A stretch of DNA of 64,000 nucleotides from contig JAUSEN010000024.1 in assembly GCA_030650025.1 (NCBI GenBank), positions 563-64,562 of the forward strand. Reading direction: 5' to 3'. The stretch is from Candidatus Magasanikiibacteriota bacterium (lineage in GTDB: Bacteria > Patescibacteriota > Patescibacteriia > Magasanikbacterales > GWA2-37-8). Under the pieces are notes generated by a model. The model did not search any database. It had not been told where the DNA came from and was given only the letters and a program-made list of their open reading frames with translations. Shown one piece after another: positions 583 to 40,676 of this stretch; within the stretch, counting starts at the first letter, position 1, and the number at the start of each line of letters is the position of its first letter. The translations under genes were made by a program, and so were the position numbers.

Positions 583-2019
583 ATGCCAGGCTTTGAGCCG
601 CTTTTTAATATTACGCTCGACTTCTCTTTTTGGGAATGGTTTATTGGTTTGTCTATTCCCCAGATGGCGATAGTTTTATACGCTTTATTTGGCTGGCTGG
701 TTTTGTTTGGCTTTTTCTTTAAGGCCGGCTCTTTACTCTGGGTAAAATATCGGCAAGATGTTTTGTACATGCCCAAATGGCATTGGGTACTCCTCGCGGT
801 AGATATTCCGCCTTTGTTTATCCAGACGCCTAAGGCGGTCGAGCAAATTTTCGCGCATCTTTCGGGCGCGGCCATGCATATTAACGTGCGCGATAAATAT
901 TGGATTGGTAAAAGGCAAAAATGGTTTAGCTTTGAAATTGTCAGTATCGAGGGTTATATTCAATTTATTATTCGCACCGAAGAGGCGTACCGGGATTTGC
1001 TTGAGGCGGCTATTTACGCGCAGTACCCGGAAGCGGAAATTACGGAAGTGGAAGACTATGTTGATTATATTCCTAAGTATTACCCCAATAAAGATTTTGA
1101 TGTTATGGGCGTGGAGTTCCAGCTGTCGGAGAAATTGCCCTACCCGATTCGCACCTACCCATCGTTTGAATATTCTTTGAGTAAAGACGTGGTGTTTAGC
1201 GACCCGATGGCCGCGATTTTGGAAGTGTTTACCAGGATTGGCCACGGCGAGCATATGTGGATGCAATTATTGGTAGAGCCGACCAGCAATCATTGGAAAG
1301 AAGAAGGAATTGAGCTCGTCAAAAAATTAATGGGCCAAGAAACGCCCCACCAGGCTAGTTTGGGCAGTAAACTTGCTGGTATTCCCCAGGTGGCTCTCCA
1401 GGAGCTCTCTAATATTTGGCATTGGCAGTTTGAGCCGAGCGAAGCGCACGCGAGCGCCGGCAAAGAGATTAGCGTTAATCGCCTCTCGCCGGGAGCTAAA
1501 GATACAGTTTTGGCGCTGGAAGAAAAAATTGCCAAAATTGGGTTTAAGTCGAAACTGCGCATTTTATACGCCGGGCGCACGGATGTTTATAAAGGCGACC
1601 GGTATACGGACAGTTTTGTCGGCGCGATTAGCCAATTTCATATTCAAAATCGCAATGGTTTGGTGCCGTATATGGCCACCCATTCGCATTATGATACCAA
1701 GCACCATAAGCGCAGTTACCAGTGGAAGCGGACATTTGTCAGGGCTTTTAAAAGGCGCAAAGAACGCTGGAAGAAATGCCGCGGCTATATTTTAAATATC
1801 GAAGAGTTGGCGACCATTTGGCACTTCCCACTGCCGTTTGTGAAGGCGCCTCTGATGAGCAAAGCGAGCGCCAAACGCGCCGAGCCGCCAATTGGCCTGC
1901 CGGTCGAGAGTTCTATTACGCCGCTACAAAAAAGATTGCCCGAGGTTGAGAGGCTAGGGGCCAGCGTCCCTACAGTGCCAGAGCTTAACGAGCCTCCCGA
2001 GGACTTGCCTTACGCTTAA
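583..2019 (+). CDS. Membrane protein paralogous to the N-terminal (non-ATPase) domain of the T4SS coupling-protein-like ATPase at 6187-8742
   Basis: It has N-terminal transmembrane helices. Shared blocks with the 851-aa protein include FEIVSIEGYIQFIIRTEEAYRDLLEAAIYAQYPEAEITEVEDY versus FEIVAKENAISFYVAVPDKLKGFIEQQIHAQYPHAEITEELDY, and EELATIWHFPLP versus EEMASFWHLPIPG. There is no Walker A motif. Confidence 0.5.
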   Translation: MPGFEPLFNITLDFSFWEWFIGLSIPQMAIVLYALFGWLVLFGFFFKAGSLLWVKYRQDVLYMPKWHWVLLAVDIPPLFIQTPKAVEQIFAHLSGAAMHINVRDKYWIGKRQKWFSFEIVSIEGYIQFIIRTEEAYRDLLEAAIYAQYPEAEITEVEDYVDYIPKYYPNKDFDVMGVEFQLSEKLPYPIRTYPSFEYSLSKDVVFSDPMAAILEVFTRIGHGEHMWMQLLVEPTSNHWKEEGIELVKKLMGQETPHQASLGSKLAGIPQVALQELSNIWHWQFEPSEAHASAGKEISVNRLSPGAKDTVLALEEKIAKIGFKSKLRILYAGRTDVYKGDRYTDSFVGAISQFHIQNRNGLVPYMATHSHYDTKHHKRSYQWKRTFVRAFKRRKERWKKCRGYILNIEELATIWHFPLPFVKAPLMSKASAKRAEPPIGLPVESSITPLQKRLPEVERLGASVPTVPELNEPPEDLPYA

Positions 2020-3170
2020 ATTGTTTTTATAAACTGTTTTACAATCCGCTCGACATCCTCGGCGGATTTGGCGTTCTCCATAAGTTCAACGCGTAGTTCT
2101 TTGGCGCCAGGGAAGCCGTTAACGTAGGCTTTGTAGTGCTTTTTCATGATGTCGAAATTTTTATGTTCACTTAAAAGCCTTTCAAATAATTTGGTGTGTT
2201 CGACCATGACAAAGAGTTTTTGTTTTGTTCCAACTGTCATCCCGAGTGAGGCCTCGCGGCCGACGAGGGATCTCTGTCCATCGATGGGTGACACAGAGAT
2301 TCCTCCTGCGACGTCGGAATGACAGTCGCGAAACAGCCACGGGTTGCCAAAGATGCCGCGGCCAATCATGACGCCATCGGCAGAAGTCTCGGTAATTTTA
2401 TTTTTGGCGTCGTTAATATCCAGCACGTCGCCATTGCCGAGGATGAGTGTTTGGTCGCGTAGGGGCGGGGTGACCCCGCCCCTACTAAAATTACCAAAAA
2501 AATCATCGCGAATTTCCACTGCCCGTTTAACATGCTCCCACCGAGCGGGAACTTTGGACATTTCTTTGCGGGTGCGGGCGTGAATTATTATAGCCGCGAG
2601 ATCCATTTCTAATAAATAAGGCAACCAAGTGTCCATTTCCACTTTGTTAAAGCCAACGCGAGTTTTTACGGAAATCGGCAGCTGGCCAGCCCCGCGTTTG
2701 GTGGCGGCAATAATTTCTGCCGCGAGTTTGGGGTTTTGCATGAGTTTAGCGCCCGCGCCTTGTTTTTCCACGTTTCTGTCCGGGCAGCCCATGTTGATAT
2801 CAATGCCGTCGAAGCCAAGTTCCTGGATTAAGAGAGCGGTTTTGTAAAAATTGTCTGGTTTTGAGCCAAAAATTTGCGCCACGATGGGCCGTTCGGCTTC
2901 GCTGAATTTAAAATCAATCAAAAGTTTGGCGCGGCCGGGAGATTGCAAGCCATCGCAAGAAGTAAACTCGGTAAACATTACATCTGGCCCGCCTACGCTC
3001 GCCTCCGACGAGCTACGGCGGGTAAACTTTCCTTGTTCATCAAAAATGTTCGCCCCGTCAAATTTTGAGTATTTAGCTATAATGGCACGAAACGCGCAGT
3101 CGGTAACATTGGCCATGGGGGCGAGGGCAAAAATAGGCCGGGTCAAGTTTTTCCAAAATCCAGAGCGCAT
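2016..3170 (-). CDS. dus: tRNA-dihydrouridine synthase (Dus family); carries an in-frame palindromic insert
   Basis: LAPMANVTDCAFR and GFDGIDINMGCP motifs are present. The insert encodes RGGVTPPL. Confidence 0.85.
   Translation of the reverse strand: MRSGFWKNLTRPIFALAPMANVTDCAFRAIIAKYSKFDGANIFDEQGKFTRRSSSEASVGGPDVMFTEFTSCDGLQSPGRAKLLIDFKFSEAERPIVAQIFGSKPDNFYKTALLIQELGFDGIDINMGCPDRNVEKQGAGAKLMQNPKLAAEIIAATKRGAGQLPISVKTRVGFNKVEMDTWLPYLLEMDLAAIIIHARTRKEMSKVPARWEHVKRAVEIRDDFFGNFSRGGVTPPLRDQTLILGNGDVLDINDAKNKITETSADGVMIGRGIFGNPWLFRDCHSDVAGGISVSPIDGQRSLVGREASLGMTVGTKQKLFVMVEHTKLFERLLSEHKNFDIMKKHYKAYVNGFPGAKELRVELMENAKSAEDVERIVKQFIKTI
2459..2485. repeat. In-frame GC-rich palindrome gtaggggcggggtgaccccgcccctac (gtaggg...ccctac family) inside dus
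   Basis: A perfect 27-bp palindrome read from the sequence. It is in frame and translates to RGGVTPPL. Confidence 0.8.
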
Positions 3171-3199
3171 GATTTAGGTTGGAAGCAGTTAAAATTCTT

Positions 3200-3646
3200 T
3201 TAAAAAGCGCCCGGGAGAGTCCCTTCGGCCGAGGTGGTGGCGTAAACTAGCTGGGTAATGACAAAACTGGCGATAGCGTACGCCGAGAGAATTATAGCGA
3301 GGCCGATGGCGCCGGAATAAAGGAATTTTTTGGCTTCGCCCACTTTTTCTTCATTGCCGCCGGCGGTCATCCAAATAAAACCGCCGAGGAGCACGATGAC
3401 CACCGCCACAATGCCGAGTAACCCCATGGCGACGCGAATAATACGCGCCATCGTGAGGCGAATATCCCCGGCGCCAAGGCCACTGGTTTCGGAAATTTTG
3501 GGCGGTAACAGCTCGTTAGGAGTAATTAAATCCGCTCGCGCGGGTAAAGCAAAATACGCCTGCGAGAGCAAGGCTAGAGAAAAAATATTTATGAGAAACA
3601 AAGATAGTTTTTTCATGTGTTGCCAGACTTGGATTCGCCCTATCAT
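3200..3646 (-). CDS. TrbC/VirB2-like T4SS pilin-type protein (signal peptide followed by two hydrophobic helices)
   Basis: A signal peptide (MKKLSLFLINIFSLALLSQA) is followed by IRVAMGLLGIVAVVIVLLGGFIW, a short polar loop and AIGLAIILSAYAIASFVI. This topology is typical of VirB2/TrbC pilins. Confidence 0.4.
   Translation of the reverse strand: MIGRIQVWQHMKKLSLFLINIFSLALLSQAYFALPARADLITPNELLPPKISETSGLGAGDIRLTMARIIRVAMGLLGIVAVVIVLLGGFIWMTAGGNEEKVGEAKKFLYSGAIGLAIILSAYAIASFVITQLVYATTSAEGTLPGAF
3618..3640. repeat. Direct repeat of the tRNA-Gln 3' end (gttgccagacttggattcg), about 70 bp downstream of the tRNA
   Basis: The 3618-3640 segment matches 3707-3729. Two small hairpins sharing 'tcattcgata' lie between the copies. 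Confidence 0.5.
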
Positions 3647-3705
3647 TCGATAGGGCGCCGTGTCGTCATATCATTCGATATGACCAACATGACACGGCGA
3701 ACATC

Positions 3706-3779
3706 TGGTTGCCAGACTTGGATTCGAACCAAGATAATAAGATTCAGAGTCTTATGTCCTACCATTAGACGATCTGGCA
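3706..3779 (-). tRNA. tRNA-Gln (anticodon CUG)
   Basis: Manual fold: 7-bp acceptor TGCCAGA/TCTGGCA, anticodon loop CTCTGAA, T-loop GGTTCGAATCC, discriminator A and an encoded CCA. Confidence 0.8.
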
Positions 3780-3785
3780 GTGAAC

Positions 3786-4628
3786 TTAGTTATCAAACGC
3801 GGGGCCGGTTTCGTACCTAGCTAATTCTTCGCGGGAGATCGTGATAATATTTTTTAGGCTCCAGCCGTGGTTTTGCAAAGCTTTGGGGCTCGCGACAAGA
3901 TACTTAACACCCTCGCGCACGAGGTAAACGCGTTTAGCGTTTTCCGCCCGGACAAACATTTTTGGCTCGGTAAAGAGCACGGTCGGTTCGCCATCGGCCT
4001 CGTGAGTAGCGTGGTTGAAGTCCCGTAAAGAGGCCATAATAGTATCATAATTATACGGAAAGTCAATGCCATCTGACAGCTCCGGGTCGTTGACATAAAA
4101 GCTTTTTTTTACGTTATCAAAGCCGGTTAAGACCATCATGTGATAGCTCGAACCGCCGCGGCGAAAACGATGGCGGGGGTTGTTCAGATCATAGCCATAA
4201 TGCAAGCTGATCACCGGCCGGCCAGCCTCAAGCTCGCTCTGAATTTCTTCGAGGGTGGGATGACGTTTAATAACCGCGTCAAAATTGCTGTAATCATTAA
4301 TGAGTTTTTGCGTGCGGGTAGCGTTGGTGTCCGCGTTACTGCCAAACAGCCTGTCTTCGATCGGAAATAAACGGTTCATTAATTTTTTAGAGATCGCTTT
4401 GTTTAAGATGGCCCTGGGGTTCCCTTGATAAAATTTATCAACCATTATAATTGACGCTTCTTCGCAAGCGCCATTCCAAGGTTTGACCCAAACGCCATCG
4501 GGGATTTCCCAAATGTGAGGCACCGGGAGCTGGGTCGTTTCGCTCGCGGCCATGGCCACAGGAGTATTCCAAAAAAATACCCCTAAAAATATCATGATAA
4601 TGACAGGGCGAAGTAAGATCATAATCAA
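3786..4628 (-). CDS. Secreted C39-like (Peptidase_C39_2 type) cysteine peptidase domain protein
   Basis: There is an N-terminal transmembrane/signal segment. It has a WNGACEEAS cysteine motif with downstream His (HYGYD, YHMMVLTGFD). Confidence 0.35.
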   Translation of the reverse strand: MIMILLRPVIIMIFLGVFFWNTPVAMAASETTQLPVPHIWEIPDGVWVKPWNGACEEASIIMVDKFYQGNPRAILNKAISKKLMNRLFPIEDRLFGSNADTNATRTQKLINDYSNFDAVIKRHPTLEEIQSELEAGRPVISLHYGYDLNNPRHRFRRGGSSYHMMVLTGFDNVKKSFYVNDPELSDGIDFPYNYDTIMASLRDFNHATHEADGEPTVLFTEPKMFVRAENAKRVYLVREGVKYLVASPKALQNHGWSLKNIITISREELARYETGPAFDN

Positions 4629-6181
4629 CTAACCACTTCGCCCCCAAATTCGAGCGCGAGCGATTGGAGTTCGGAGTCAGCGGTTGGCGCCGCGGGCGGG
4701 GGCGCGGTTAGAGAGCAAACCAGGGGAATTTTTTCGCCAAATTCCGCTTCGAGAGTTTGTTCGATGAGAATGCGGTTTTTGCGGTCTTCCAGCTTTTCTT
4801 TATGCAAAGAATAGGGGAGTGCGAGGTGAAGGCCGTCCGCGTCCACTTTGTTTAAGCTCGCCATGCTTAAAATAAAAGTGAGGGAATGGTTCGCTTTAGT
4901 GATGAGAGTTATTAAATTACTCCATTTGGTTTGAATTTCTTCCAGAGTAGTTTTTGGAGGTTCGCGGTGCCCGGTGATCGTTTGTAAAGCGGATTTCAAA
5001 GATTCAGTCAGAGAGTGTTTTGATTCGGGCGCGGCTGGTTTAGAGGCGGGAGTGGAGGCAGAGCTCGGGGGAGGCGTGGTAGGCAAAGAGGCGGAAGACG
5101 CGAACTCCACAATTAAAAGTTCCAGCGGTAGTTCTGGTAAAGGCGCGGATTTAATCTGGCCGCGGCGCTTAATAGTGAGATCAATAAGATTCTGAATATC
5201 GTTAAGCGCGCTGGCCGTGGCCAGCTTTCCGAGACGTTTAATGTGTTCGGGGCTAAAATCTGGAGATAAATCACTGCCAGTGAGGCCGATTTTAGCAAAC
5301 AGCACTGTCCGGAGCGCTTCTAAGAGATCCAGGGTAAACTGGTCAAGGCTTAAGCCTTCGCTGATCAGCCTCGCGAGAAGCTGGAAAGCGGCAGACATTT
5401 GGCGGGTGAGGAGGAATTCGGTAAATTCCAAAACCCCATCGCTCGCTCCGGCCGGCAAAATTAGTTCGGCGTCGGCCGCGGTTATTTTCTTTTGATCCAA
5501 AGTAAAAATTTGCCCGAGCAAACTCTCGGCATCGCGGAGGCAGCCGTCGCTTTTTTTAATGATACGCTCCAGCACTTCTTTGTCTACTTTTATTTTTTCT
5601 TCAGCGCAGATTTTTTTGAGGCGCTCCAGCATTAAATCGTGCGGTATTTTTTTAAATTGAAAGCGCTGGCAACGCGAAATAACCGTGGCGGGCAATTTGT
5701 GCAGTTCGGTGGTGGCTAAGATAAAAATAACATGGGCAGGCGGCTCCTCCAGGGTTTTAAGGAGCGCGTTGAAAGCGCTGCCCGAGAGCATGTGCACTTC
5801 ATCAATGATAAATACTTTGTATTTGGCCGTCGCGGGCTGGAAGTGAGCACTCTCGATAATATTTTCGCGGACATTTTCCACCCCGGTATGCGAGGCGGCG
5901 TCAATTTCCAAAACGTCGATAAAGCGCCCGGCGGCAATGGCCGTGCAAGCGCTACATTCTCCGCAGGGTTCACTGGTCGCTGCGGCTCGCTTCTCGCAGT
6001 TAATCGCTTTGGCTAAGAGGCGAGCGAGCGTAGTTTTGCCAACACCCCGAGGACCAGAAAACAAATAAGCCTGCGCGAGCTTATTTTGGGAGATCTCGTT
6101 TTTAATAGTTTGAGCAATATGTTCTTGGCCGATTAAATCAGCAAACACTTGCGGGCGGTATTGGCGATAAAGAGTGGGCAT
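4625..6181 (-). CDS. dnaX: DNA polymerase III subunit gamma/tau
   Basis: YRPQVFADLIGQEH, GPRGVGKTT and the zinc-module cysteines (CGECSAC) are present. Confidence 0.9.
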   Translation of the reverse strand: MPTLYRQYRPQVFADLIGQEHIAQTIKNEISQNKLAQAYLFSGPRGVGKTTLARLLAKAINCEKRAAATSEPCGECSACTAIAAGRFIDVLEIDAASHTGVENVRENIIESAHFQPATAKYKVFIIDEVHMLSGSAFNALLKTLEEPPAHVIFILATTELHKLPATVISRCQRFQFKKIPHDLMLERLKKICAEEKIKVDKEVLERIIKKSDGCLRDAESLLGQIFTLDQKKITAADAELILPAGASDGVLEFTEFLLTRQMSAAFQLLARLISEGLSLDQFTLDLLEALRTVLFAKIGLTGSDLSPDFSPEHIKRLGKLATASALNDIQNLIDLTIKRRGQIKSAPLPELPLELLIVEFASSASLPTTPPPSSASTPASKPAAPESKHSLTESLKSALQTITGHREPPKTTLEEIQTKWSNLITLITKANHSLTFILSMASLNKVDADGLHLALPYSLHKEKLEDRKNRILIEQTLEAEFGEKIPLVCSLTAPPPAAPTADSELQSLALEFGGEVVS

Positions 6182-6186
6182 AAAAT

Positions 6187-8742
6187 TTACAAACTCGCTT
6201 CGCTCAAGTCTACTTCTGATGCTTTAGTAGCCACTCCTAACTGCGCGCGCTCCATGATTTCGGCTTCTACGATTTCGCGCGGGCGGCCGTATTTGAGGCG
6301 CGAGAGTTCTTTAATGGCCGCGGCCAGCTCTTTGTTGCCGGCTTGCGGCGGGTAAGTCATCATATTAAACGGCTTGGCGGCCGTATTGTCAATAAGGAGC
6401 TTAACATAGGCGGTGTATTGCTCCACGTTGAGGAGGTCATACGCGCCAAACACCGGGGCATACTCTTTCTGGAGTACCTCGGCGTCCTCGGGGCCGATGC
6501 GGAAGGTAACAAGAGAGCCGGCGTTGCCCAAGACCGCGTCGCGCACCTGGGTTTTGCCTTTGTTGTCTTCCAGTTGTTTCATGTACTGGTGGGCGATGAT
6601 AAGTTCTAGGCGATATTTACGGGCTTCTGAAAGAATGGTCGCGATTGAGTCGGTAATAAAGTTTTGGAACTCGTCTATATACAAATAAAAATCACTACGT
6701 TCTTCTTCGGGGAGCGAAGCCCGTTCGAGAGCGGTCATTTGGAGTTTGCTCACAATAATCATGCCAAGCAAGTTGGCATTAATTTCGCCGACCAAGCCTT
6801 TGGCTAAATTAACGAGCAAGATTTTTTTCTTGTCCATGATTTCTCTAAAATTAAAACCCGAGTGGGTTTGGCCGATAATATTGCGCATCATGGCGTTTTC
6901 CACAAAGCGGCCGACTTTCGAAATCAAATAACCGAGCATTTCGGATTTATGGAAGTCGCTGGTTTTGGCCATTTCTTTGTCCCAAAATGCCAGCACCACC
7001 GGGTCTTGCAATTTCTTTTTCCATTTAGCGACAAACGAATCGTCGGTAAACATGCGCGGAATTTCGGCGATCGTCCCCGGGTTTTCCATGTCGGCCATCA
7101 GAGTAAGCATGACGTTCCTCATGTTATGTTCAAACATCGGCCCGATCATGGAAGGGTCGGTGACGAGTTTATAAAATATGGAGACCATTTCTTGAGTGAC
7201 AAAATCTTTTTGTTCCTCGGTTCTGGCTTCAAGCATATTGAGACCGATAGGGCGGTCCACATCGGACGGGTTGAAATAAATAACGTCGTCCACCCGTTCT
7301 TTGGGGATATGCTGTAAAACATATTCTACAAAATCGCCGTGCGGATCAACCACGCAGACTCCTTCGCCATTTTGGACATCTTGCACCGCCAAATTTTGAA
7401 TGAAGACAGATTTACCGGATCCGGATTTACCAATGGTATAGAGGTGGCGACGGCGGTCGGAGCGCGTCATACGGACGATGGTTTCTATGCCGCGGTAAAC
7501 AGTGCGCCCGAGAATAATACCTTCTTTTGGCATGTTAGTGGGCGGCGGTGCTTTGCGGGCAGTTAGCCAATTAATATGCGGAGTGTCAGTGCCCGGGATA
7601 GGCAAGTGCCAAAAACTGGCCATTTCTTCGGTATTAACGACTTGGTATTGGCTAGTGTCAAATAGGCGGTAGATAGAATCGGAGATGAGGCGGGCGGGGC
7701 GAGAAGGGACCGCGGCGCCAAAACTGTTGCCATAGCGATAGATATTGTATTGTGAAAAAGCGTTGAGAATATTTTCTAGGTTGAGCTGGGCTTTCTCTTT
7801 GCTCGGCGCCGAGCTAACCACGCGGAAGCAGATTTCGAGGCCGCCGTGGCTTAGTTTTTCTTCCATGGATTTGACCATTTCTTCTTCCATTTGGGTAAGA
7901 TGGTATTGCCCCGAGGCCGAATCCATTTGTGAAGGGTCTTTTTTGCTTTTTGACAACACTTTCCAAGTTTTATAAATTTCGCGCATGATCGCGCCGCGGC
8001 GCGCGACGTATTCAAATTTTTGGCCTTCTTTAATGTCTCTAATCATATGGACGCTTTGGCCGCGCCAATCGGAGGTGGCCGGGCGAACGACATATTGGAT
8101 TACCGCGCCCTCGTTATCCAAAATTTTACTTAAGGGGTTAAGCAAAGCCAAAATCGGGTCGCTATCAATTTTTTTATAGGTTTTGAACGGAAAAGCGGAT
8201 TTATATTTAAAAAAAAGTTTAGCCCCTACCACGTGCGATTGGGGTTCAAAAATATTATAATCAAGTTCTTCGGTAATTTCCGCGTGGGGGTATTGGGCGT
8301 GGATTTGCTGTTCGATAAAGCCTTTCAGCTTATCGGGAACAGCGACATAAAAAGAGATCGCGTTCTCTTTGGCCACGATTTCAAAGGCAAGATGGTCGCC
8401 CCGCCCGCGGAGCCACTTCATAAAGCCCTTTTCCCGTTTGAGGCCGGCGACAGCGCTAAAGAGAGTGTCGGCCACGGCCACGCGCTCGCGCACCTGATTT
8501 ATGTTGTCTTCGGTATTCTGCTGGGTGTTTTCGTTTTTCTTTTCTTTGGGCACTTTAATTAAGAGGACACCGCGATGAAAAGTTTTATTTTCCCGATTTT
8601 GGGAATGAAAAATTGAGCGTAGTAAATACAAGAGTCCGACTACGGCGAGAATAATTACGACCGCGAGAGTAATATAAAAATTAGTCGGGTTCTTGGTGAC
8701 CAAGGCGGCGAAGCTCGTGATGACAAAGGCGGTGTCGCTCAT
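6187..8742 (-). CDS. T4SS coupling-protein-like P-loop ATPase (VirD4/TraG/TrwB family) with an N-terminal transmembrane and extra domain
   Basis: The Walker A motif is IGKSGSGKS and is followed by VVDPHGD. A Walker B-like motif (LYIDEFQNF) and a C-terminal AHQYMKQL (Q..QL-like) motif are present. Confidence 0.6.
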   Translation of the reverse strand: MSDTAFVITSFAALVTKNPTNFYITLAVVIILAVVGLLYLLRSIFHSQNRENKTFHRGVLLIKVPKEKKNENTQQNTEDNINQVRERVAVADTLFSAVAGLKREKGFMKWLRGRGDHLAFEIVAKENAISFYVAVPDKLKGFIEQQIHAQYPHAEITEELDYNIFEPQSHVVGAKLFFKYKSAFPFKTYKKIDSDPILALLNPLSKILDNEGAVIQYVVRPATSDWRGQSVHMIRDIKEGQKFEYVARRGAIMREIYKTWKVLSKSKKDPSQMDSASGQYHLTQMEEEMVKSMEEKLSHGGLEICFRVVSSAPSKEKAQLNLENILNAFSQYNIYRYGNSFGAAVPSRPARLISDSIYRLFDTSQYQVVNTEEMASFWHLPIPGTDTPHINWLTARKAPPPTNMPKEGIILGRTVYRGIETIVRMTRSDRRRHLYTIGKSGSGKSVFIQNLAVQDVQNGEGVCVVDPHGDFVEYVLQHIPKERVDDVIYFNPSDVDRPIGLNMLEARTEEQKDFVTQEMVSIFYKLVTDPSMIGPMFEHNMRNVMLTLMADMENPGTIAEIPRMFTDDSFVAKWKKKLQDPVVLAFWDKEMAKTSDFHKSEMLGYLISKVGRFVENAMMRNIIGQTHSGFNFREIMDKKKILLVNLAKGLVGEINANLLGMIIVSKLQMTALERASLPEEERSDFYLYIDEFQNFITDSIATILSEARKYRLELIIAHQYMKQLEDNKGKTQVRDAVLGNAGSLVTFRIGPEDAEVLQKEYAPVFGAYDLLNVEQYTAYVKLLIDNTAAKPFNMMTYPPQAGNKELAAAIKELSRLKYGRPREIVEAEIMERAQLGVATKASEVDLSEASL

Positions 8743-12351: not shown

Positions 12352-13569
12352 GTGAGTTATCAACAGGGGGAGGAGCATAGCTATAGGCTGGTGGCTGATT
12401 TTTTGCTATACTATAGGTATATGCTGTTTGGTAAACCCCATTCATTTTTGGGTATTGATCTTGGCGCCGGGGGCGTAAAATTAGTAGAACTAAAAACCGA
12501 GAAACACCGACCGGTTCTTTTTACTTATGCCGTCACAACCGATGGCCAGGACGTGCATCGCTTGCTCCACGAGAGCGTGAACACTCCCGAAGAAGGGAAA
12601 AAACAAAACCAGGCCAAAGTCAAAGAGTACGCGGCGGTTTTAAAGGCGGTTTGCGCCCGCGCCAACGCCAAGTCCAAGAACGCGGTCGTGAGCTTGCCGG
12701 TGTCGTCGGTATTTCATGCTTTGGTAACTTTGCCAGCGGCCAAGAAAGAAGATTTCGATCATTTTTTAAAAGCAGAAGTAAAGAAACTCCTGCCCTACCC
12801 GCTCGAGGAAGCAGTCTTGGATTATCAAATTTTGCCCGGGGAGGAAAAAGCTACCACCAAGCGGGTTTTGGTGAACGCGGTGCCGCGTGATTTGGTGGTT
12901 TTTTATACCGAGGTGTTTGCCGAGGCTGGCCTTAAGCTCGAGGCGCTCGAGCCCGAGTCCGTGGCCTTGGCTCGGTCTTTAATCGGGCGCGACCAGTCTG
13001 TTACCATGCTGGTGGATGTGGGGGCGGAGCGCACTAATTTTTTTATTATTGATGGGGGTGTTCCTATCACGCACCACAGCACTGAAGTGGGCGGCAATCG
13101 TTTAACAGCGATTTTTAAAAATATTTGGCAAGTGGACAGCGCGGCCGCGGAAATTTTGAAGATGGATTTATTTACGGAATTAACGCGCGGCAGTAACCAT
13201 GCGGCTGTGTCCCCCGACCCGTCTGCCGTCCCGCTTCGCCCGCGAAGCGAGGCGAGCGAGGCAAGCCGATTTAAAGCGCTGACCCTGCCGGTGGTGGATC
13301 CGATTTTAAAGGAAATACAGTATGGTTTTGAGGTCTATTTAAAGCAGAGCGGCAACGAGCAGAAACGCCCAGAAAAGGTAGTTTTGACTGGCGGAGCGGC
13401 TTTTTTACCATACCTCTCCGAGCAAATAGCGGCCAATTTTAAGATTAAGTGCTTTATTGGCGACCCGTGGGGGCGGGTTCTTTACCAAGATAGGCTAAAA
13501 CCGATTCTGCGCGCGGTAGGGCCAAGGCTAGCGGTGGCTATTGGCCTAGCATTGCGCAGTATGGTATAA
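12352..13569 (+). CDS. pilM: Type IV pilus assembly ATPase-like protein PilM; carries an in-frame GC-rich hairpin insert
   Basis: It has the actin-like fold signature FLGIDLGAGGVKLVEL. The GC-rich insert encodes PDPSAVPLRPRSEASEAS. Confidence 0.8.
   Translation: MSYQQGEEHSYRLVADFLLYYRYMLFGKPHSFLGIDLGAGGVKLVELKTEKHRPVLFTYAVTTDGQDVHRLLHESVNTPEEGKKQNQAKVKEYAAVLKAVCARANAKSKNAVVSLPVSSVFHALVTLPAAKKEDFDHFLKAEVKKLLPYPLEEAVLDYQILPGEEKATTKRVLVNAVPRDLVVFYTEVFAEAGLKLEALEPESVALARSLIGRDQSVTMLVDVGAERTNFFIIDGGVPITHHSTEVGGNRLTAIFKNIWQVDSAAAEILKMDLFTELTRGSNHAAVSPDPSAVPLRPRSEASEASRFKALTLPVVDPILKEIQYGFEVYLKQSGNEQKRPEKVVLTGGAAFLPYLSEQIAANFKIKCFIGDPWGRVLYQDRLKPILRAVGPRLAVAIGLALRSMV
13232..13249. repeat. In-frame GC-rich palindrome cgcttcgcccgcgaagcg inside pilM
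   Basis: The palindrome is read from the sequence. It sits in a locally GC-rich segment of the coding sequence. Confidence 0.6.
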
Positions 13570-13642
13570 TAGTATCCAGGCGTGTTATAATATAAATTAA
13601 GCATAATCAGCAATAAAAGGGGGCTAAAATTAATTCAGAAAG

Positions 13643-13700
13643 CGCCGCGCTTCAGCGGATCCCGACTTAGTCGGGACGCGGCATGAATTTGTCAATTCAT
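13643..13700 (+). promoter_or_regulatory. Conserved leader element (copy 2), with an extra small hairpin (tcccgac-tta-gtcggga) inserted in its loop. Its ATG is the start of the response-regulator ORF
   Basis: The motif gcgccgcgcttcagcgga[...]cgcggcatgaatttgtcaattcat is the same as at 9373-9420. Confidence 0.4.
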
Positions 13701-14081
13701 ATGGAAAAAAATAAAATAAATATTTTACTAGTTGAAGACGATATTTTTTTGGCCGGAATTTACCAGAAGAAGTTTGAAATGGAAGCCTATAAAATAGTGG
13801 TGGCGGATAACGGCGAGAAGGCGCTCGTAGAAGCCAAAAAGAAAAAATTTGATATAATTTTGCTTGACATTTTGCTCCCTAAATTAGATGGGTTCGCGGT
13901 CTTAGAGAAACTTAAAGCTGACCCGGAGACTAAACCGATCCCGGTAATTTTGTTGACGAATTTAGGCCAAAAAGATGACGTGGACAAGGGTTTGCAAGCC
14001 GGCGCCGTGGATTATTTGATTAAGGCGCATTTTAAACCATCGGAAGTGGTGGATAAAGTGCGGGCGGTTTTGAAAATTTAA
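13683..14081 (+). CDS. Response-regulator receiver domain protein (CheY-like, stand-alone)
   Basis: LLVEDD, DIILLDILLPKLDG and a conserved Lys region are present. Confidence 0.8.
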   Translation: MNLSIHMEKNKINILLVEDDIFLAGIYQKKFEMEAYKIVVADNGEKALVEAKKKKFDIILLDILLPKLDGFAVLEKLKADPETKPIPVILLTNLGQKDDVDKGLQAGAVDYLIKAHFKPSEVVDKVRAVLKI

Positions 14082-14126
14082 GCCGCGTCGGTCATTTTTG
14101 AAAAGTATCATTTTTATAATGAATCT

Positions 14127-14564
14127 TTGGAAGGAGGTGACACTATGAATAAAAAAGGCTTTACTTTAATTGAACTTTTGGTTGTTATCGCTATTATTGG
14201 CTTATTGTCCACTTTGGCGGTAGTAGCGCTCGGTAGCGCCCGCGTTAAAGCGCGCGATTCCAAGCGTTTAAGCGATCTTAAACAGCTCCAGACAGCATTC
14301 GAACTTTATTACACCGATCAGAACGCTTATCCAGCGGGAAGCGGCGTCACTTTGGGTTCAGGAGACTATGCTTGTCTGAACGCGACTGGCTTCGCGGCCA
14401 CTGGCTGTGCCACCCCTTATATGGGCCAAGTTCCTAAAGATCCAAAAGACTTCACTTACGTATATACTTTAGCCTCCAGCACCTATAGTGTGGCGGCGGA
14501 GCTTGAGGGTACGGTAAACGGTTTGACTGGCGTGATTTCTTTGTCTCCGGCTGGAATTAAATAA
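14127..14564 (+). CDS. Type IV pilin (prepilin with an N-terminal methylation motif)
   Basis: [19 protein letters not shown] is the class III signal peptide. Confidence 0.85.
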
Positions 14565-14672: not shown

Positions 14673-15503
14673 ATGGCGTTTGACAGCCTACAACTAGCAG
14701 TATATTTGCTTATTAGTTTACTCGGACTTTGTTTTGGCAGTTTTGTGAATTCTTGGATGTGGCGAGTAAAAAATACACGCGAAAAGATTGGGAGGCGCAG
14801 TGTTTGTGTGCATTGCGGCGAGAAAATTATTTGGTACGACAATATTCCGTTATTTGGTTTTTTGCGGTTGCGTGGGCTTAGCCGGTGCTGCCGCCGACCG
14901 ATTCCGCAAGATTATTTTTGGGTGGAGCTCGCGGGAGGGTTCTTGTTTTTATTAGTCGCTCTTTATCATCTCAACTTAGTTATTTTTAATCCCGTTTTTT
15001 TTGCTCGGGATTTATTTTTTATTTGTATTCTGTTGGTAATCTTTTTATATGACGCCAAGTATCAGTTAATTTTAACTGGAGTAGTGGCGGCCGGGGGGTT
15101 GGGCGGTTTTATTTTTAATTTGTTCACCGCGCGGCCATTTACTACTTATATTTTGCTTTTTAATCATAATGCCGCGGCGATTGCCAGCAATCTGGCGCTC
15201 GGAGCCATAGTCGGGTGGGGTTGGTTTGCTTTCCAATATTATGCCTCGCGCGGTAAATGGGTGGGCGGCGGCGACGTGCGCCTCGGCGCTATGCTCGGCC
15301 TCTGGCTCGGCTGGCCGCTTATTCTGGTTTGTTTATTTTTTTCCTATATTCTTGGTGCTCTGGTGGCAGTGCCGTTGTTAATACTCAAGAAAAAGCAGTT
15401 TGGTTCGGCTCTGCCGTTTGGGACTTTTTTAGCAGTCGGGGCAGTGATCACGATTTTTTATGGCCAGCCAATTTTCAATTGGTATTTGAGGTTTTTAGGG
15501 TAA
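14673..15503 (+). CDS. pilD: Prepilin peptidase (A24 family)
   Basis: An N-terminal CxxC...CxxC zinc module, multiple transmembrane helices and the conserved GGGD-containing region are present. Confidence 0.8.
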   Translation: MAFDSLQLAVYLLISLLGLCFGSFVNSWMWRVKNTREKIGRRSVCVHCGEKIIWYDNIPLFGFLRLRGLSRCCRRPIPQDYFWVELAGGFLFLLVALYHLNLVIFNPVFFARDLFFICILLVIFLYDAKYQLILTGVVAAGGLGGFIFNLFTARPFTTYILLFNHNAAAIASNLALGAIVGWGWFAFQYYASRGKWVGGGDVRLGAMLGLWLGWPLILVCLFFSYILGALVAVPLLILKKKQFGSALPFGTFLAVGAVITIFYGQPIFNWYLRFLG

Positions 15504-34890: not shown

Positions 34891-36537
34891 ATGGCTTCTC
34901 CGGAAAGCGGCCATGGTGGCGGGGGGCATGGTAAAGAAAAAAAGAAACCAAGAAGATCTATTTTAGAAGGGCCGCCTGTAAGGGATTCGGTAGATTCGAT
35001 GAGAGAGCAAATAGAAAATGTAGATAATCCCGATTACCCGCGCAAGCCTAAGCCGCCGGAAGATTGGACAGTGCCCTACCACCGGAAATACCGCCGAGCC
35101 GGGATTTTTGGCACGCTCCTCGCAGGAGCGATGGCAATTGGCTACCCTATTTATAAAGAATTGAATCCAGATAGAGCCCCTCGGATCGGCGCTAAGCCAA
35201 GCCCGGGTGGTAGCGATAAGAATAAAAGTCCAGCAAGTGAACAACCCCGCGGGTCTGCTAGCACTCCGAGCCAGGCGGCACCCGAGAGATTTAATGAAGC
35301 GATCGCGGCGGATGACGCGCGCGTGGCTGAAGAAGAGGCTAATCATAAAGCGGCAGAGGAAGCGGAAGTGGCGCCAGTGGCCGCGCCAGACGCCGGAGAA
35401 GCTCCCGCAACAGCTGCGGCAACCACAGAAGCAGAAGAACCGAGCGCGCCAGTTGTTTCAGCAGAGCCAGCGGTTACCGAGGAGAGTGGGGAAGAAGAAA
35501 ATACCGGAGTAAGCGGTCTCACGGATGCTTCGGGTCGGTACAGATTAAAAATAAATGTACCCGGTTTGCCGGCTGGTTATAATTTAAATTTTAATAGAGC
35601 GCCAGGGCCAGCCATCGCGGCGAACGCGAACACTCTAGAGGTAGCGGCAGTTAAAGAAAAACCTTTGGGGCCAGAAGTTATTCCGATTGATTTAGCTCCG
35701 ACGGAAACTTTAGCCACGCAAATGGTAGCCGGCGAGCCCGTGCAAGTTTTGGCGGGGCGCTATTCGCGAGAAGAAATTACTCGAGCTCTCAATCACGCGC
35801 GCATTTTGGAACAGCGCATCATGGCGGCGAAAGATTTGCGTTCAGAATACGCCCCTAATCCGGCTGGCGCCCGGGCGGCCGCGCAAAAGCTGAAGCAAAC
35901 TAAAGAAGAACTAGCCGCGTTTCGTTTAGGACTGTTGCGCGGGGAAGAAGTAAGTTTTGCGGAACGCGATTTGCGCGAAATTGGGCCTGGTGTCTATCAC
36001 GAAGCTGTTAAAGCGGAATTGCGCGAGGCGATTGATGCCACGGTGGGGCAAGCCATGATAGCTAAAAAAGATAGCGGGAAAAGTTTGACAGAAATTTTGC
36101 CAGTCGGCAGTGGAGACGCTCATACAAAACCGGAACCGCTCGTCGTGCGTATTGTTAGGGAAGGAGAAGCAACGCGAGTGGAAGTCCCCGCTGATTCATT
36201 TACACTCGCGCAGTACGCGGCGTTGTTTGACGCCCCCGAGCGTTTTGTTCATAGCGGATTATTTAAAGCCAAAATTGACTTTGAGAAACCAGCGGGAGTG
36301 GCTCCAGATAAACGCGCGGCGTGGCAAAGAGAAGCCAAACGAGAACTTCCGCGGGCCACAGTTTTAAAAAAAGTTTTAGGTCAGACTCCGGTCGGTACGC
36401 AAGCTTACGAAGCGGTGAAAGCCGAATTGCAAGCAGTGGTAGTGAGGCTAACAACCTCGTTTGGCGCGCGGCCAGCGGACTTATTTGATTCTAAACTTTT
36501 GGATAGATTAGATATTGTTTGGGAAGATAAAAAATAG
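34891..36537 (+). CDS. Hypothetical protein with a Gly/Lys-rich N-terminus and Ala/Glu/Pro-rich low-complexity sequence
   Basis: It is an ORF only, with a terminator hairpin at 36551-36596. Confidence 0.35.
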   Translation: MASPESGHGGGGHGKEKKKPRRSILEGPPVRDSVDSMREQIENVDNPDYPRKPKPPEDWTVPYHRKYRRAGIFGTLLAGAMAIGYPIYKELNPDRAPRIGAKPSPGGSDKNKSPASEQPRGSASTPSQAAPERFNEAIAADDARVAEEEANHKAAEEAEVAPVAAPDAGEAPATAAATTEAEEPSAPVVSAEPAVTEESGEEENTGVSGLTDASGRYRLKINVPGLPAGYNLNFNRAPGPAIAANANTLEVAAVKEKPLGPEVIPIDLAPTETLATQMVAGEPVQVLAGRYSREEITRALNHARILEQRIMAAKDLRSEYAPNPAGARAAAQKLKQTKEELAAFRLGLLRGEEVSFAERDLREIGPGVYHEAVKAELREAIDATVGQAMIAKKDSGKSLTEILPVGSGDAHTKPEPLVVRIVREGEATRVEVPADSFTLAQYAALFDAPERFVHSGLFKAKIDFEKPAGVAPDKRAAWQREAKRELPRATVLKKVLGQTPVGTQAYEAVKAELQAVVVRLTTSFGARPADLFDSKLLDRLDIVWEDKK

Positions 36538-36550
36538 CCTAATTTGAGAT

Positions 36551-36596
36551 AAAAAATCGCGAAAATCCCGTGTGCCTAAGGCAAGCGGGATTTTTT
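36551..36596 (+). terminator. Rho-independent terminator (aaaatcccg...cgggatttttt)
   Basis: Inverted repeat plus a T-run. Confidence 0.5.
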
Positions 36597-36800
36597 GGCT
36601 ATGCACAGCTATTTTAAGGCTTAGACATTGACAAAAAGCTGATTTTGTGTTATATTGATTTGTCCTGCAAAATGCGGGAAAAGGGTCGGTAAAAGCGCCC
36701 AAAATTATTTAGGCATTTTTACGGACCCCGAGGAACCTCTGTTACAGAGACCTTGACGGGAACCACCACCTACCTGGCGCGATCGCCAGAGGAGGAAGCC

Positions 36801-37850
36801 ATGAAGATCATGGCCGAGAACTGGAAGCACGCGGCGATCGCACTCGCCGCTCTGTTCACCTTGTTCGCGGGTGCGACCGCGAACGCCGAAGACGGCGACC
36901 AGTCCGTTTTCTACGCGGCTGCCACGCCTCCGCTCCCCGCGCCGGCTCCGACCACGATCGCCGTTCCGCTCACGGAGGCGGAGAGGGCCACCCTGGCCGA
37001 GTGCCGGCAGATCGAGGCCAAGCGGCCTGCCCGGCCGCGCAAGGCTCTGAAGTCGGCGCCCAAGATGAGCGACGACTGTCGGAAAATCTGGGCGGCGGCC
37101 CAGAAGGCCTTCGGGAATGGGCGCTTTGGCGAGGCGCTCCGACTCTTCCACAAGGGCATGGAAGAGTGCGGCCAGCCGGCCTGGCGTTTCAACGCCGGCG
37201 CGACCCACAAGGCGCTCACGCGCTACGTGGGGTGCAATCCGCAGAACATCGCGGAAGCGCGGCGGGAGGTCGCGGAGTACATCGCCGCGGCCACGGAGGA
37301 CGAACAAACGCGGAGGCTCCTGCGGGAGATTGACGCGTTCGAGAAGTCCTGCCAGGCAGCTGACGCGGAGCCGCCTGAACGGAAGCCGGCGCCGGTGGCC
37401 GACGCCCAGCCTACTGGGAGCGGCCCGCCGCCCGCCTGCCCGCCCACGCAGGTCGTCTGCCCGACGGTGCCCCCGTGCCCGTCGTGCCCGAACTGCGAGC
37501 TCACCTGCCCGCCCATGCAGGTGAACTGCCCCACCGGCGCGTTGCCCACCGCGCCGCCTCCGCCGGCTCCTTCCCAGGAGCCGCAACCGCCCCCCCTGCC
37601 CCCGGTGCAGGAGCGCCGGGTCGTCCCTCTGCCCGAGTCGGACGACCCCCCGCCCGTCCCGGCTAGGAGGGCCAAGCCCCCCTGCCAGAAATGCCCGCCG
37701 CCTGGACCTTTCCAGGACGGCGACAGCATCGTCGGCAAGGCCAGGGGCTTTGAGCGCGCGGGGCGCGCGCTCAAAGAGAAGTGGGACGCGCGGGCAACGC
37801 GTCTCGAAACCAAAGCGGCGGCGGCCGAGGCGGCCGCCGCCCAGCCGTAA
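36801..37850 (+). CDS. Secreted Pro/Cys-rich protein encoded by a roughly 70% GC ORF (GC-rich cassette 1)
   Basis: A ribosome-binding site (gaggagga) precedes the ORF. A signal peptide (MKIMAENWKHAAIALAALFTLFAGATANA) and CPxxP/PPCP-type motifs are present. The ORF ends at the shared 3' stem-loop element. Confidence 0.5.
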   Translation: MKIMAENWKHAAIALAALFTLFAGATANAEDGDQSVFYAAATPPLPAPAPTTIAVPLTEAERATLAECRQIEAKRPARPRKALKSAPKMSDDCRKIWAAAQKAFGNGRFGEALRLFHKGMEECGQPAWRFNAGATHKALTRYVGCNPQNIAEARREVAEYIAAATEDEQTRRLLREIDAFEKSCQAADAEPPERKPAPVADAQPTGSGPPPACPPTQVVCPTVPPCPSCPNCELTCPPMQVNCPTGALPTAPPPPAPSQEPQPPPLPPVQERRVVPLPESDDPPPVPARRAKPPCQKCPPPGPFQDGDSIVGKARGFERAGRALKEKWDARATRLETKAAAAEAAAAQP

Positions 37851-37937
37851 ACATCTGCCCTGTTCGCGGGGCGCTGCGCAGAAAGCGCACAAACAGCCTC
37901 TTCGGCTGATGCGCCGATGAGGCGCAAACACGAACTT

Positions 37938-37990
37938 GGGGACGAGAATGAGAATTTTCAGGACTAGCAAAACTCGTCTCCTCCCCAATT
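37938..37990 (+). repeat. Conserved 3' stem-loop element (ggggacgagaatgagaattttcaggactagcaaaactcgtctcctccccaattgt), copy 1
   Basis: It is nearly identical to 39842-39893, and a partial match lies at 42410-42445. Confidence 0.6.
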
Positions 37991-38209
37991 GTTCTCGGGT
38001 TTTATAAACGTGAGAATTGAAGGGATTTATAACAATTTGATCTTTGAAAAAATTAAAAACAAAAAAGAACTCCCTTGCGGGAGTTCCGAGATTCAGAGCA
38101 GCTTTGCTACGACTAAGATTATCAACAAATGAATGATAACATCACTGTAATGTTATGTCAAATAATTTATCCACAAAAACAAAAGCCCCGAATTTATCAG
38201 GGCTTTAGA

Positions 38210-38295
38210 TGGTGGACGGAGGGGGGATCGAACCCCAGGAACTAAGTTGATAATCCTAGACGCGGCGCCAGCCGCTCTCCGCCCTCAAATCCACC
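38210..38295 (-). ncRNA. tRNA-like small RNA gene A, with its own promoter
   Basis: The fold has acceptor GGGCGGA/TCCGTCC with a G3:U70 pair, D-arm GCGG/CCGC, T-loop TTCGATC, discriminator A and an encoded CCA. The anticodon arm is irregular (8-nt loop AUUAUCAA). A TTGCAT-N17-TAAAAT promoter lies about 14 nt upstream of the mature end, and a hairpin plus T-run lies downstream. Confidence 0.35.
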
Positions 38296-38606
38296 ATGAA
38301 GGATTTTATCATAGTGCTCTTTAAAATGCAACTTTATAAGTATTTATTTATGTGGATAAACGACCATAGGCATCTTGACAAACTAGAGAATTTGTGCTAT
38401 ACTTATTTGTTAGATTAAAAAACAGGTTTTTTAGTCTAATTATAGAGAAATTCTGGCAAAGTTGCTAAGATTAGCAGTTTTGCCAGGGTTTTTACCAAAA
38501 TGCCCTCAAATCAACTGTTCTTTACAACCATGAACCACCCCGCACCACAAGGGTGCAGGGTAAAAAATGGTTCATGGCAAGCAATAGTGTCCCAACATAA
38601 ACACCA

Positions 38607-38660
38607 GTCCTACCGGGAACAAAGATTTGTAATCATACAATTCTTTTTCCCCGGTAGGAC
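38607..38660 (+). promoter_or_regulatory. Conserved leader hairpin (gtcctaccggg...AT-rich loop...cccggtaggac), followed by a ribosome-binding site; copy 1
   Basis: The same stem and downstream tcacgccgagttctccgaaagggatcctcaaggaggatg are found at 40549-40676. Confidence 0.55.
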
Positions 38661-38702
38661 TCACGCCGAGTTCTCCGAAAGGGATCCTCAAGGAGGATGA
38701 AC

Positions 38703-39758: not shown

Positions 39759-39841
39759 CGGGGGTCGCGCGTTCGAGCGCGGCCAGGCAAAAAGGCTCCG
39801 TGTGCATGGGCGGCACACGGAGCCATCGAACAAAGCAGAAA

Positions 39842-39893
39842 GGGGACGAGAATGAGAATTTTCAGGACTAGCAAAACTCGTCTCCTCCCCAAT
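39842..39893 (+). repeat. Conserved 3' stem-loop element, copy 2
   Basis: It matches 37938-37990. Confidence 0.6.
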
Positions 39894-40042
39894 TGTCTTG
39901 CTCTTAAGTAGTTAAGGGCGGGACTGAAGGGAATCAAGTTCTTTTAAAATAAAAACCCCGCACCACAAGGGTGCAGGGCAAGAAAAATAATTTAAATTAA
40001 AATCCCCTCTAGTAATTTTAGAGAGGATTTCAGGTGGTGGAC

Positions 40043-40119
40043 GGAGGGGGATTCGAACCCCGAAACTGGGATAGCAAGCCCGGCTGTAGCGCCAGCTACT
40101 CTCCGCCCTCAAATCCACC
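40043..40119 (-). ncRNA. tRNA-like small RNA gene B, with its own promoter
   Basis: The acceptor and T-arm match those of gene A, and the D-arm is GTAG/CTAC. The anticodon region GCUUGCU (GCU anticodon) lacks a well-paired stem. A TTGCAT-N17-TAAACT promoter is present, and a CCA is encoded. Confidence 0.3.
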
Positions 40120-40548
40120 GGGGTCTAGTTTATCAGATTGCTCTTTAAAATGCAACTATAAAGTTACATGTGAGTGTCAGACAAAAAAAGAACTCCCTTG
40201 CGGGAGTCCCGAGATTCAGAGTAGCGTTTTTAGCGCCAACTAGACTTGCTATCCATAACTAAGGATACCAAGTAGCGAAAATATCGTCAAGTAGTTGTCC
40301 ACAGGACATTAACATAAAAATCCCTTTTGTTAAGGGATTCATATGTTGACACACAGAGTAAAACCAGAGTTAATATCTGGCACACTGTACAAATTAAGAA
40401 TAACAGCTTGAGAAAAAATTGTCAACCACTTATCCATTTTTTTAAGTTCACGAGGCGCCGAATGTGTTAATTTGGCCTGTCGTGAGCCTTAAAAAGCTCG
40501 TTAGTTCTTTACAACTTAAACGGTTTGACTATATAAAGTAATAAAATT

Positions 40549-40635: not shown

Positions 40636-40676
40636 TCACGCCGAGTTCTCCGAAAGGGATCCTCAAGGAGGATGAT

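Follow-up and report, generated by a model that had tools for sequence, protein, structure and literature searches.

Genes of type IV secretion systems (T4SS) occur widely in the phylum Patescibacteria (PMC12102498). A survey published in 2025 counted 5,713 VirD4-like genes in 2,918 genomes, 148 of them near virB4, and VirB2-like pilins in 1,948 assemblies (Quinonero-Coronel et al., PMC12102498). In the T4SS gene sets of these bacteria the pilin genes are scattered or stand in arrays (Quinonero-Coronel et al. 2025, Wang et al. 2023). Here we describe a locus in a 64,000-nt stretch of DNA (the window) from Candidatus Magasanikiibacteriota bacterium (assembly GCA_030650025.1, contig JAUSEN010000024.1, positions 563-64,562, forward strand). 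It encodes an 851-amino-acid (aa) ATPase related to type IV coupling proteins (T4CPs), named here protein B, and a 478-aa protein, named A, that resembles the N-terminal part of B. A preliminary description of this DNA had presented these two open reading frames (ORFs) and a pilin candidate as dispersed T4SS-like components, and had brought in a parallel with Saccharibacteria. All three ORFs were confirmed at their coordinates (Table 1), and the VirD4-type ATPase and pilin assignments proved right. The dispersal of T4SS-like genes had already been published for the phylum (PMC12102498), and the source organism belongs to Candidatus Magasanikbacteria, not to Saccharibacteria.

The gene sets of Quinonero-Coronel et al. 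2025 and of Wang et al. 2023 are similar to the locus in that VirD4-like genes occur everywhere in them, with about two in each genome, most of which are distant from virB4. This number (5,713 in 2,918 genomes) fits the two paralogs described below. The two papers do not describe a DUF8128 module, a fused/split pair of paralogs, a small membrane protein upstream or linkages to secF and dnaX, and no paper in the library searched mentioned DUF8128. Our results make it probable that the common DUF8128 module underlies two membrane-anchored motors of the T4CP type, one fused (B) and one split, that arose by an ancient duplication and are inherited vertically. Protein A would be the anchor half of the split motor, whose ATPase gene would be unlinked in this lineage.

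The fused protein B and its ATPase

Protein B combined a membrane anchor made of a single hydrophobic segment (residues 18-48), a DUF8128 domain (approximately residues 57-400, nt 7543-8574) and a P-loop ATPase of the T4CP type (approximately residues 405-800, nt 6343-7530). The VirD4/TraG-type motifs reported previously were all present (GKSGSGKS at residue 438, VVDPHGD at 464 and AHQ at 717), together with a Walker B motif, YIDEF, at residue 688. The protein was 100% identical to a deposited protein from a Magasanikbacteria metagenome-assembled genome annotated as 'type IV secretion system DNA-binding domain-containing protein', and the best 120 homologs listed were 72-83% identical to it.

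The ATPase half scored above the Pfam gathering cut-offs of TrwB_AAD_bind (43.5 bits vs 20.5, matched over positions 9-333 of 387), T4SS-DNA_transf (34.3 vs 20.1) and TraG-D_C (29 vs 22), and TrwB was the sole match of a phmmer search of B against PDB sequences (E=1e-7). A profile built from the C-terminal half of B and from relatives consisting of the ATPase only was aligned with TrwB by hhalign over 272 columns (97.4% probability, E=1.2e-11); the same profile gave E=8e-6 against a VirB4 profile and E=9e-6 over 102 columns against TrsE. No Pfam VirB4 match (CagE_TrbE_VirB) was found in B, and TIGR00929 reached 13.8 bits with a cut-off of 643. The NCBIfam equivalog and subfamily models of T4CPs all stayed far below their cut-offs for B. 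FtsK/SpoIIIE and HerA belong to the same ASCE P-loop superfamily. DUF87, the central domain of HerA, passed the Pfam cut-off in B (27.6 bits vs 23.2), FtsK_SpoIIIE appeared as a P-loop-only fragment (14 bits vs 24), and the NCBIfam HerA models gave 13-14 bits against cut-offs of at least 800. An FtsK/HerA identity was rejected because these matches lay around the P-loop only and the T4CP families scored much higher. Judged from its profile affinities, the motor of B is a VirD4/TrwB-type coupling-protein ATPase, as the preliminary description had it.

B shares with the described coupling proteins (VirD4/TrwB/TraG/TraD) the Walker A and B motifs, the similarity to the TrwB profile over about 270 columns and the N-terminal membrane anchor. 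It differs from them by a DUF8128 domain of about 350 residues inserted between anchor and motor, and by one hydrophobic anchor segment in place of the canonical two-helix N-terminal domain that directly precedes the nucleotide-binding domain. Moreover, split versions encoded by two or three genes exist for the DUF8128 systems, and the B- and A-type genes are chromosomal core genes with no relaxase or virB4 nearby.

An alternative identity for B, a part of anti-phage defense (the Mad8-like protein of MADS or a HerA-type ATPase), came from PADLOC matches to mad8 (B, E=1.9e-16; a homolog of the ATPase-only kind, E=3.9e-17), weak HerA matches and a Foldseek match to a DUF4297-HerA complex (E=0.07). 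MADS is an operon of eight genes, mad1-mad8 (bioRxiv 10.1101/2023.03.30.534895), and no other mad gene was found nearby. The neighbors of B in every relative examined were dnaX, a C39 peptidase gene and a conserved hypothetical gene; protein A had no PADLOC match, and the near-universal presence and very high conservation of B are unlike those of defense islands. The defense identity was rejected on gene context and we regard it as very improbable; the mad8 match is explained by common ATPase ancestry.

The stand-alone DUF8128 protein and its split ATPase partner

Protein A also started with one hydrophobic N-terminal anchor segment (residues 19-54). The similarity of A to the N-terminal domain of B alone, proposed previously, was significant: BLASTP aligned A107-445 with B110-410 at 23% identity (E=5e-27), and phmmer against all ORFs of the window gave 2e-21. 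Of the two sequence blocks said to be shared, the first was seen in both proteins (AQYPHAEITE at B149, AQYPEAEITE at A146), whereas the second was similar and not identical (WHLPIP at B378, WHFPLP at A413). The N-terminal domain had been called unique. It is membrane-anchored indeed, but not unique, since precomputed annotation assigns Pfam DUF8128 (PF26449) to A, to B and to the homologs of both; our local Pfam scan gave no match for A because the local copy did not contain the PF26449 model. An exhaustive DUF8128 profile search retrieved 3,648 representatives after clustering at 50%; of the best 150, almost every one was a stand-alone protein of 420-690 aa. The domain occurs in thousands of Patescibacteria proteins. 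Homologs of A itself were about 470 aa long and 50-83% identical, with 100% query coverage for close homologs, and the AlphaFold2 model of A had a pLDDT of 78.6 and a pTM of 0.73. The homolog search with A returned no self-match (the best hit was 83% identical), and the exact A sequence was found on a read-assembly contig of 1.9 kb. The deposited annotation may lack A, whereas a protein identical to B stands in the NCBI records.

To characterize the neighborhood, 80 species-level genome loci carrying A orthologs were fetched, with counts given over 82 loci. Many of the genome records (L004, L007, L009-L016 and others) were titled 'uncultured Gammaproteobacteria bacterium', which looks like a placeholder or mislabel given their gene content and similarity to Magasanikbacteria. 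In seven of the 80 genome loci, the most distant ones (L058, L061, L069, L071, L073, L080 and L082), the gene next to the A-type gene, beginning -4 to +30 nt after it, separately encoded an ATPase without the N-terminal domain. These ATPase-only proteins were 539-773 aa long, carried Walker A at residues 35-58, matched Pfam TrwB_AAD_bind, TraG-D_C and DUF87, and were 43% identical to the motor of B; the point of the split coincided exactly with the domain boundary in B. Metagenomes were then scanned with an alignment of ATPase-only proteins. Among the 64 loci with upstream sequence, a stand-alone DUF8128 gene lay directly upstream on the same strand in 49 and nearby in three; 12 had none, and a fused gene was not found in any. 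These pairs, metagenomic and genomic, indicate that the architecture of B also exists in a split version, of which the stand-alone DUF8128 protein normally forms the first subunit.

The exact coincidence of the end of A with the start of the ATPase domain in B could also be read as the mark of a truncated pseudogene or of an assembly artifact of a full-length fused protein. There were, however, intact stand-alone homologs equal in length to A by the thousands, with close homologs aligned at full query coverage; dus overlaps the stop codon of A with no ATPase remnant 3' of A, and the identical gene was recovered on the independent read-assembly contig. The data refute this reading, to which we give practically no credence.

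The preliminary description had considered A a regulator, a decoy or a different substrate-recruitment module, which would make it an offshoot of the N-terminal domain of B acting on B, e.g., by mixed rings or N-domain heterodimers. Several facts speak for it. A and B lie within 8 kb of each other here, and 20 of the 82 loci have both on one contig; the window contains no dedicated ATPase gene, and in this lineage the WHxPxP...PP motif, which in B forms the linker into the ATPase, is common to both proteins. If DUF8128 resembles the N-terminal domain of VirB4 (see below), there is also a precedent in the central and outside subunits of VirB4 pairing via their N-domains (PMC9259494). On the other side, A was 23% identical to the N-terminal domain of B vs 41-61% (about 43%) to the stand-alone proteins with their own adjacent ATPase, and the two-gene split pair was the dominant arrangement in the metagenomic loci. 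Furthermore, the A-type genes have a conserved context of their own, independent of B: secF, then a small membrane ORF, then A. In 56 genome loci a homologous small ORF immediately preceded the A-type gene (median gap 7 nt), and secF immediately preceded the pair of small ORF and A in 70 of the 82 genome loci and in 27 metagenomic loci. In distant metagenomic loci unrelated small two-helix ORFs occupied the same slot before the A-type gene. In the window secF was not upstream of A, the linkage having been lost in this lineage. The origin of A as a decoy or regulatory offshoot of B was thus not upheld, its orthologs being normally the first genes of pairs with their own ATPase, and we consider it unlikely.

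Of the two motors, the first type, represented by B, joins anchor, DUF8128 and P-loop ATPase in one chain encoded in the dnaX operon. The second type is divided among the two-helix membrane protein encoded at 400-573, the anchored DUF8128 protein A and a separate soluble ATPase, whose gene, normally immediately 3' of A, would have been relocated or possibly lost in this Magasanikbacteria lineage. By analogy to TrwB, each motor may work as a hexameric translocase ring at the membrane. A cytoplasmic location is predicted for the DUF8128 domain, which has on one side a single anchor helix with a positive-inside flank and on the other a cytoplasmic ATPase, and the domain could act as a membrane-proximal platform that anchors and oligomerizes the motor. 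In the second type, A would tether the soluble ATPase non-covalently via the conserved WHxP...PP tail, the counterpart of the linker in B. The WHxP tail motif was kept in all 76 of 76 unlinked A genes, which argues for a retained function. A is accordingly best described, on sequence and gene order, as a putative anchor/adaptor subunit for an ATPase encoded elsewhere and not as a decoy.

A few observations on the unlinked state of the split motor come from the relatives. In Magasanikbacteria the ATPase-only genes often stood alone amid housekeeping genes and were at least 79% identical among the 120 matches listed. In one locus (L033) A and the ATPase-only gene were on one contig, 8 kb apart. 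In two cases an unlinked A gene was matched against an ATPase-only gene, and these came from different assemblies.

Several points weigh against the proposed pair of motors. No ATPase-only gene was found in the 64-kb window, and A may here work together with B or have no ATPase dedicated to it. The model of B was confident mainly in the N-terminal domain and of low confidence in the ATPase half, with pLDDT below 50 at residues 679-820. A helical stretch at approximately residues 509-637, which bears on the question of an all-alpha domain, also fell in the low-confidence half. As the shallow alignment made this half too poor for fold classification, sequence profiles were used instead. The functions suggested for both systems come from homology and gene context, and Southlakia, the one system studied by experiment, reportedly can grow epibiotically without its VirD4-like gene (PMC12102498).

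The DUF8128 fold compared with VirB4

When the model of A was searched against PDB with Foldseek, the ten best matches were all TrwK, the VirB4 of plasmid R388 (E=1.5e-4 to 5e-3, about 440 columns), and the next ones had E of at least 0.025. For the B model the top 13 matches were all TrwK (E=6e-7 to 8e-4, 514-815 columns, at least 744 in 11 of the 13), followed by the crystal structure of the VirB4 C-terminal domain; TrwB was not in the top 50. Since the VirB4 C-terminal domain was not among the matches of A, the likeness would be placed in the N-terminal domain of VirB4 (TrwK residues 15-400), which mediates dimerization and binds VirB3 as well as the tails of VirB8 (PMC9259494).

The general layout of VirB4/TrwK with VirB3 in R388 (PDB 7o41-7o43, 8rtb and 8rtd) is also similar, an N-terminal domain of about 400 residues being followed by a RecA-like ATPase and a gene for a small two-helix membrane protein standing directly upstream, as virB3 does for virB4. 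Against a link to VirB4 stand the TM-scores of the TrwK matches, which were low (0.2-0.36), and the fact that the A and B models share alignment rows and so are not independent. A hidden Markov model of the DUF8128 alignment found nothing relevant among all PDB sequences. Comparisons of DUF8128 by hhalign with single sequences of TrwK, TrsD, TrsE, TrwB and TrsK and with an 11-member VirB4 profile were non-significant (E=0.08-0.9); the VirB4 profile, compared with a diverse DUF8128 profile, gave E=0.35. With all profile comparisons non-significant, the link is left without support from sequence. The systems showed no profile similarity to the N-domains of VirB4 or to VirB3, and the ATPase was nearer TrwB than VirB4 by sequence. 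The 57-aa small protein upstream of A was aligned to VirB3 with an hhalign probability of 1.6%; it had no Pfam VirB3 match, and no other Pfam family exceeded the cut-off, sub-threshold generic transmembrane matches being all that was seen. On these models, we treat the likeness of DUF8128 to the N-terminal domain of VirB4 as a lead with roughly even chances of being true.

TrsD and TrsE of pGO1/pSK41 (the MPF-FATA type) offer a precedent for an N-domain-like protein encoded by a separate gene immediately upstream of the ATPase. TrsD, a small protein in its own right with a remote relationship to the N-terminus of VirB4, is widespread beside virB4 in Patescibacteria (PMC12102498). It has 227 aa, whereas the stand-alone DUF8128 proteins have 420-690 aa; the hhalign comparison of DUF8128 with TrsD was not significant (E=0.08-0.2), and TrsD homologs stand beside virB4, whereas the A-type genes stand beside secF and a T4CP-type ATPase gene.

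A bolder, tentative and on balance rather unlikely proposal would see the DUF8128 systems as a third, hybrid lineage of VirB4/VirD4 motors. They would combine a small VirB3-like membrane protein, a platform resembling the N-terminal domain of VirB4 and a VirD4-like ATPase, in fused and split forms. They would belong to the core genome of Patescibacteria, be passed on vertically and be present almost universally, and would drive housekeeping translocation (nucleic-acid import for nucleotide salvage, or translocation coupled to Sec or to replication) and not conjugation.

Gene neighborhood, pilin candidate and possible functions

The features of the locus are collected in Table 1.

Table 1. Genes and other features around proteins A and B in the window
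Feature	Position (nt)	Strand	Remarks
Small membrane protein, 57 aa	400..573	+	two hydrophobic helices, RH...GY.sG..GWWW signature; stop 9 nt before A
A, 478 aa	583..2019	+	stand-alone DUF8128 (PF26449), N-terminal membrane anchor
dus	2016-3170	-	convergent with A, overlaps the A stop codon
VirB2/T4SS-type pilin candidate, 148 aa	3200..3646	-	Pfam T4SS_pilin; signal peptide and two transmembrane helices
tRNA-Gln	3706-3779	-
Peptidase_C39_2-family protein	3786..4628	-	Pfam E=1.7e-11; start overlaps the dnaX stop by 4 nt
dnaX (DNA polymerase III tau/gamma subunit)	4625..6181	-	starts 5 nt after the B stop
B, 851 aa	6187..8742	-	fused anchor, DUF8128 and T4CP-type ATPase
Hypothetical protein, 187 aa	8752..9315	-	9 nt upstream of B; without transmembrane segment

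On the minus strand the order of transcription-oriented genes was the 187-aa hypothetical gene, B, dnaX, the C39-like peptidase gene, tRNA-Gln, the pilin-like ORF and dus, the first four being separated or overlapping by a few bases only. This four-gene operon was conserved in the relatives, with the C39 gene last and adjoining dnaX and B there as well. B orthologs were present in 20 of the 82 loci, with dnaX directly downstream in 20 of 20; the dnaX ortholog carried Pfam DNA_pol3_delta2 and DNA_pol3_gamma3. The hypothetical gene stood 5' of B wherever the region was covered, and was called at the same position in L083 and L001; the C-terminal half of its product was 53-73% identical upstream of B in 11 loci and had no Pfam or NCBIfam match. 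The C39-like peptidase has an N-terminal hydrophobic segment, and its candidate roles include envelope or pilin processing.

On the side of A, thymidine kinase was considered as a conserved downstream neighbor and rejected, being found in two loci only. In the related genome L001 a diversity-generating retroelement (bAvd and an RVT_1 reverse transcriptase) sat as an insertion (12762-14179) between the ortholog of A and dus. Positions 1-400 of the window, which precede the small ORF, contained stops in all frames and gave no Rfam match at the gathering score; most relatives have secF in this place.

The pilin call stood up to the profile search, as Pfam T4SS_pilin (PF18895) was matched with 36.4 bits against a cut-off of 26.6 (E=5.7e-9); the NCBIfam model for Mbov_0395-type pilin-like proteins gave 27.3 bits, below its cut-off of 40. 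The product had hydrophobic segments at residues 14-34, 64-98 and 107-136, an ARA|D-type site following the first, and its true start is probably Met11 (approximately nt 3616). A pilin-like ORF was found in only two of the 82 loci, at other positions and not syntenic with A or B, so that its nearness to them is probably incidental, and the gene would be an independently placed one of the VirB2 type. No virB4-type assembly ATPase gene stood beside it in the window. Type IV pilus genes, distinct from the T4SS-type pilin, were located nearby, i.e., PilM (12352-13569) and a prepilin peptidase (14673-15503).

The large ORFs of the window were all housekeeping genes (LigA, PPDK, Mur ligases, glycosyltransferases and type IV pilus genes). 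Elsewhere in the window, positions 36000-42500 had a GC content of approximately 58-61%, the genome having about 46%, and contained three tandem paralogous minus-strand ORFs (36705-37988, 38633-39937 and 40602-42443). Neighboring copies shared blocks of 55-66 nt at 100% identity, and two degenerate tRNA-like elements (38210-38284 and 40035-40108) lay between the ORFs. The tandem ORFs had no Pfam match, and an overlapping plus-strand ORF matched the Cys-rich Stig1 family.

Homologs of VirB4, VirB6 and VirB8-11, which the preliminary description had proposed to look for, were absent from the 64-kb window, as were relaxases; neither relaxase nor T4SS channel genes (virB4, virB6) adjoined the orthologs in the window or in the related loci. 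The candidate partners of the two motors are the T4SS of Patescibacteria or independent nucleic-acid or protein translocation. Both could be housekeeping translocases unrelated to any T4SS channel, engaged in the handling of chromosomes or nucleic acids (FtsK-like segregation, or the uptake of DNA or RNA to salvage nucleotides) or in Sec-associated export; to call them T4SS components on the ground of homology would then be wrong.

Such a role would agree with the operon of B and dnaX in all 20 loci, the position of A after secF in 70 of 82 and the high conservation already described (B homologs at 72-83%, ATPase-only matches at 79% or more among those listed). It would also agree with the lack of VirB4, VirB6 or relaxase genes in the window and with the small fraction of Patescibacteria T4CP genes near virB4 (148 of 5,713), for which the survey authors raised exaptation as a possibility (PMC12102498). 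The T4SS cluster of Southlakia has no recognizable coupling protein (PMC10633639). The C-terminal extensions of the ATPase-only subunits, which varied among L058, L061, L073, L082 and L033, often ended in a treble-clef zinc finger (zf_Tbcl_2, in several) or, in L033, a long Lys-rich low-complexity tail; these tails suggest nucleic-acid binding. However, gene context is circumstantial, T4CP genes are often far from virB4 even in real conjugative systems (PMC12102498), a VirB2-type pilin gene is present in the same window and T4SS genes are common throughout the phylum. We consider the housekeeping role a serious possibility, albeit with less than even chances. The dnaX/secDF linkages, the high conservation and the zinc-finger or Lys-rich tails speak for a housekeeping function, related to nucleic acids or to export, no less than for classical T4SS coupling. 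This alternative concerns function only and is compatible with the structural and evolutionary part of our proposal, i.e., two motors, fused and split, on one DUF8128 module.

Patescibacteria, which rely on host cells, account for a large part of the diversity of bacteria, and T4SS-like machinery is among the few systems shown to be essential for this lifestyle. What the locus adds is the common DUF8128 module, the fused/split pair of paralogs with a conserved small membrane partner, and ties with secDF and dnaX in place of virB4; these three together provide a concrete parts list for the approximately two VirD4-like ATPases per genome. The data show the domain composition and paralogy, the split arrangement with its frequency, the conserved neighbors and the T4CP affinity. 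For annotation, 'hypothetical proteins' made of stand-alone DUF8128 can be connected with the 'T4SS DNA-binding domain' ATPases as parts of a single machine. If the likeness to the N-terminal domain of VirB4 is true, it bears on the divergence of the two T4SS motor families. A hybrid lineage, if real, would be an intermediate still alive today between the two hallmark ATPases of the T4SS and would explain why about two 'orphan' coupling proteins are kept in each reduced genome.

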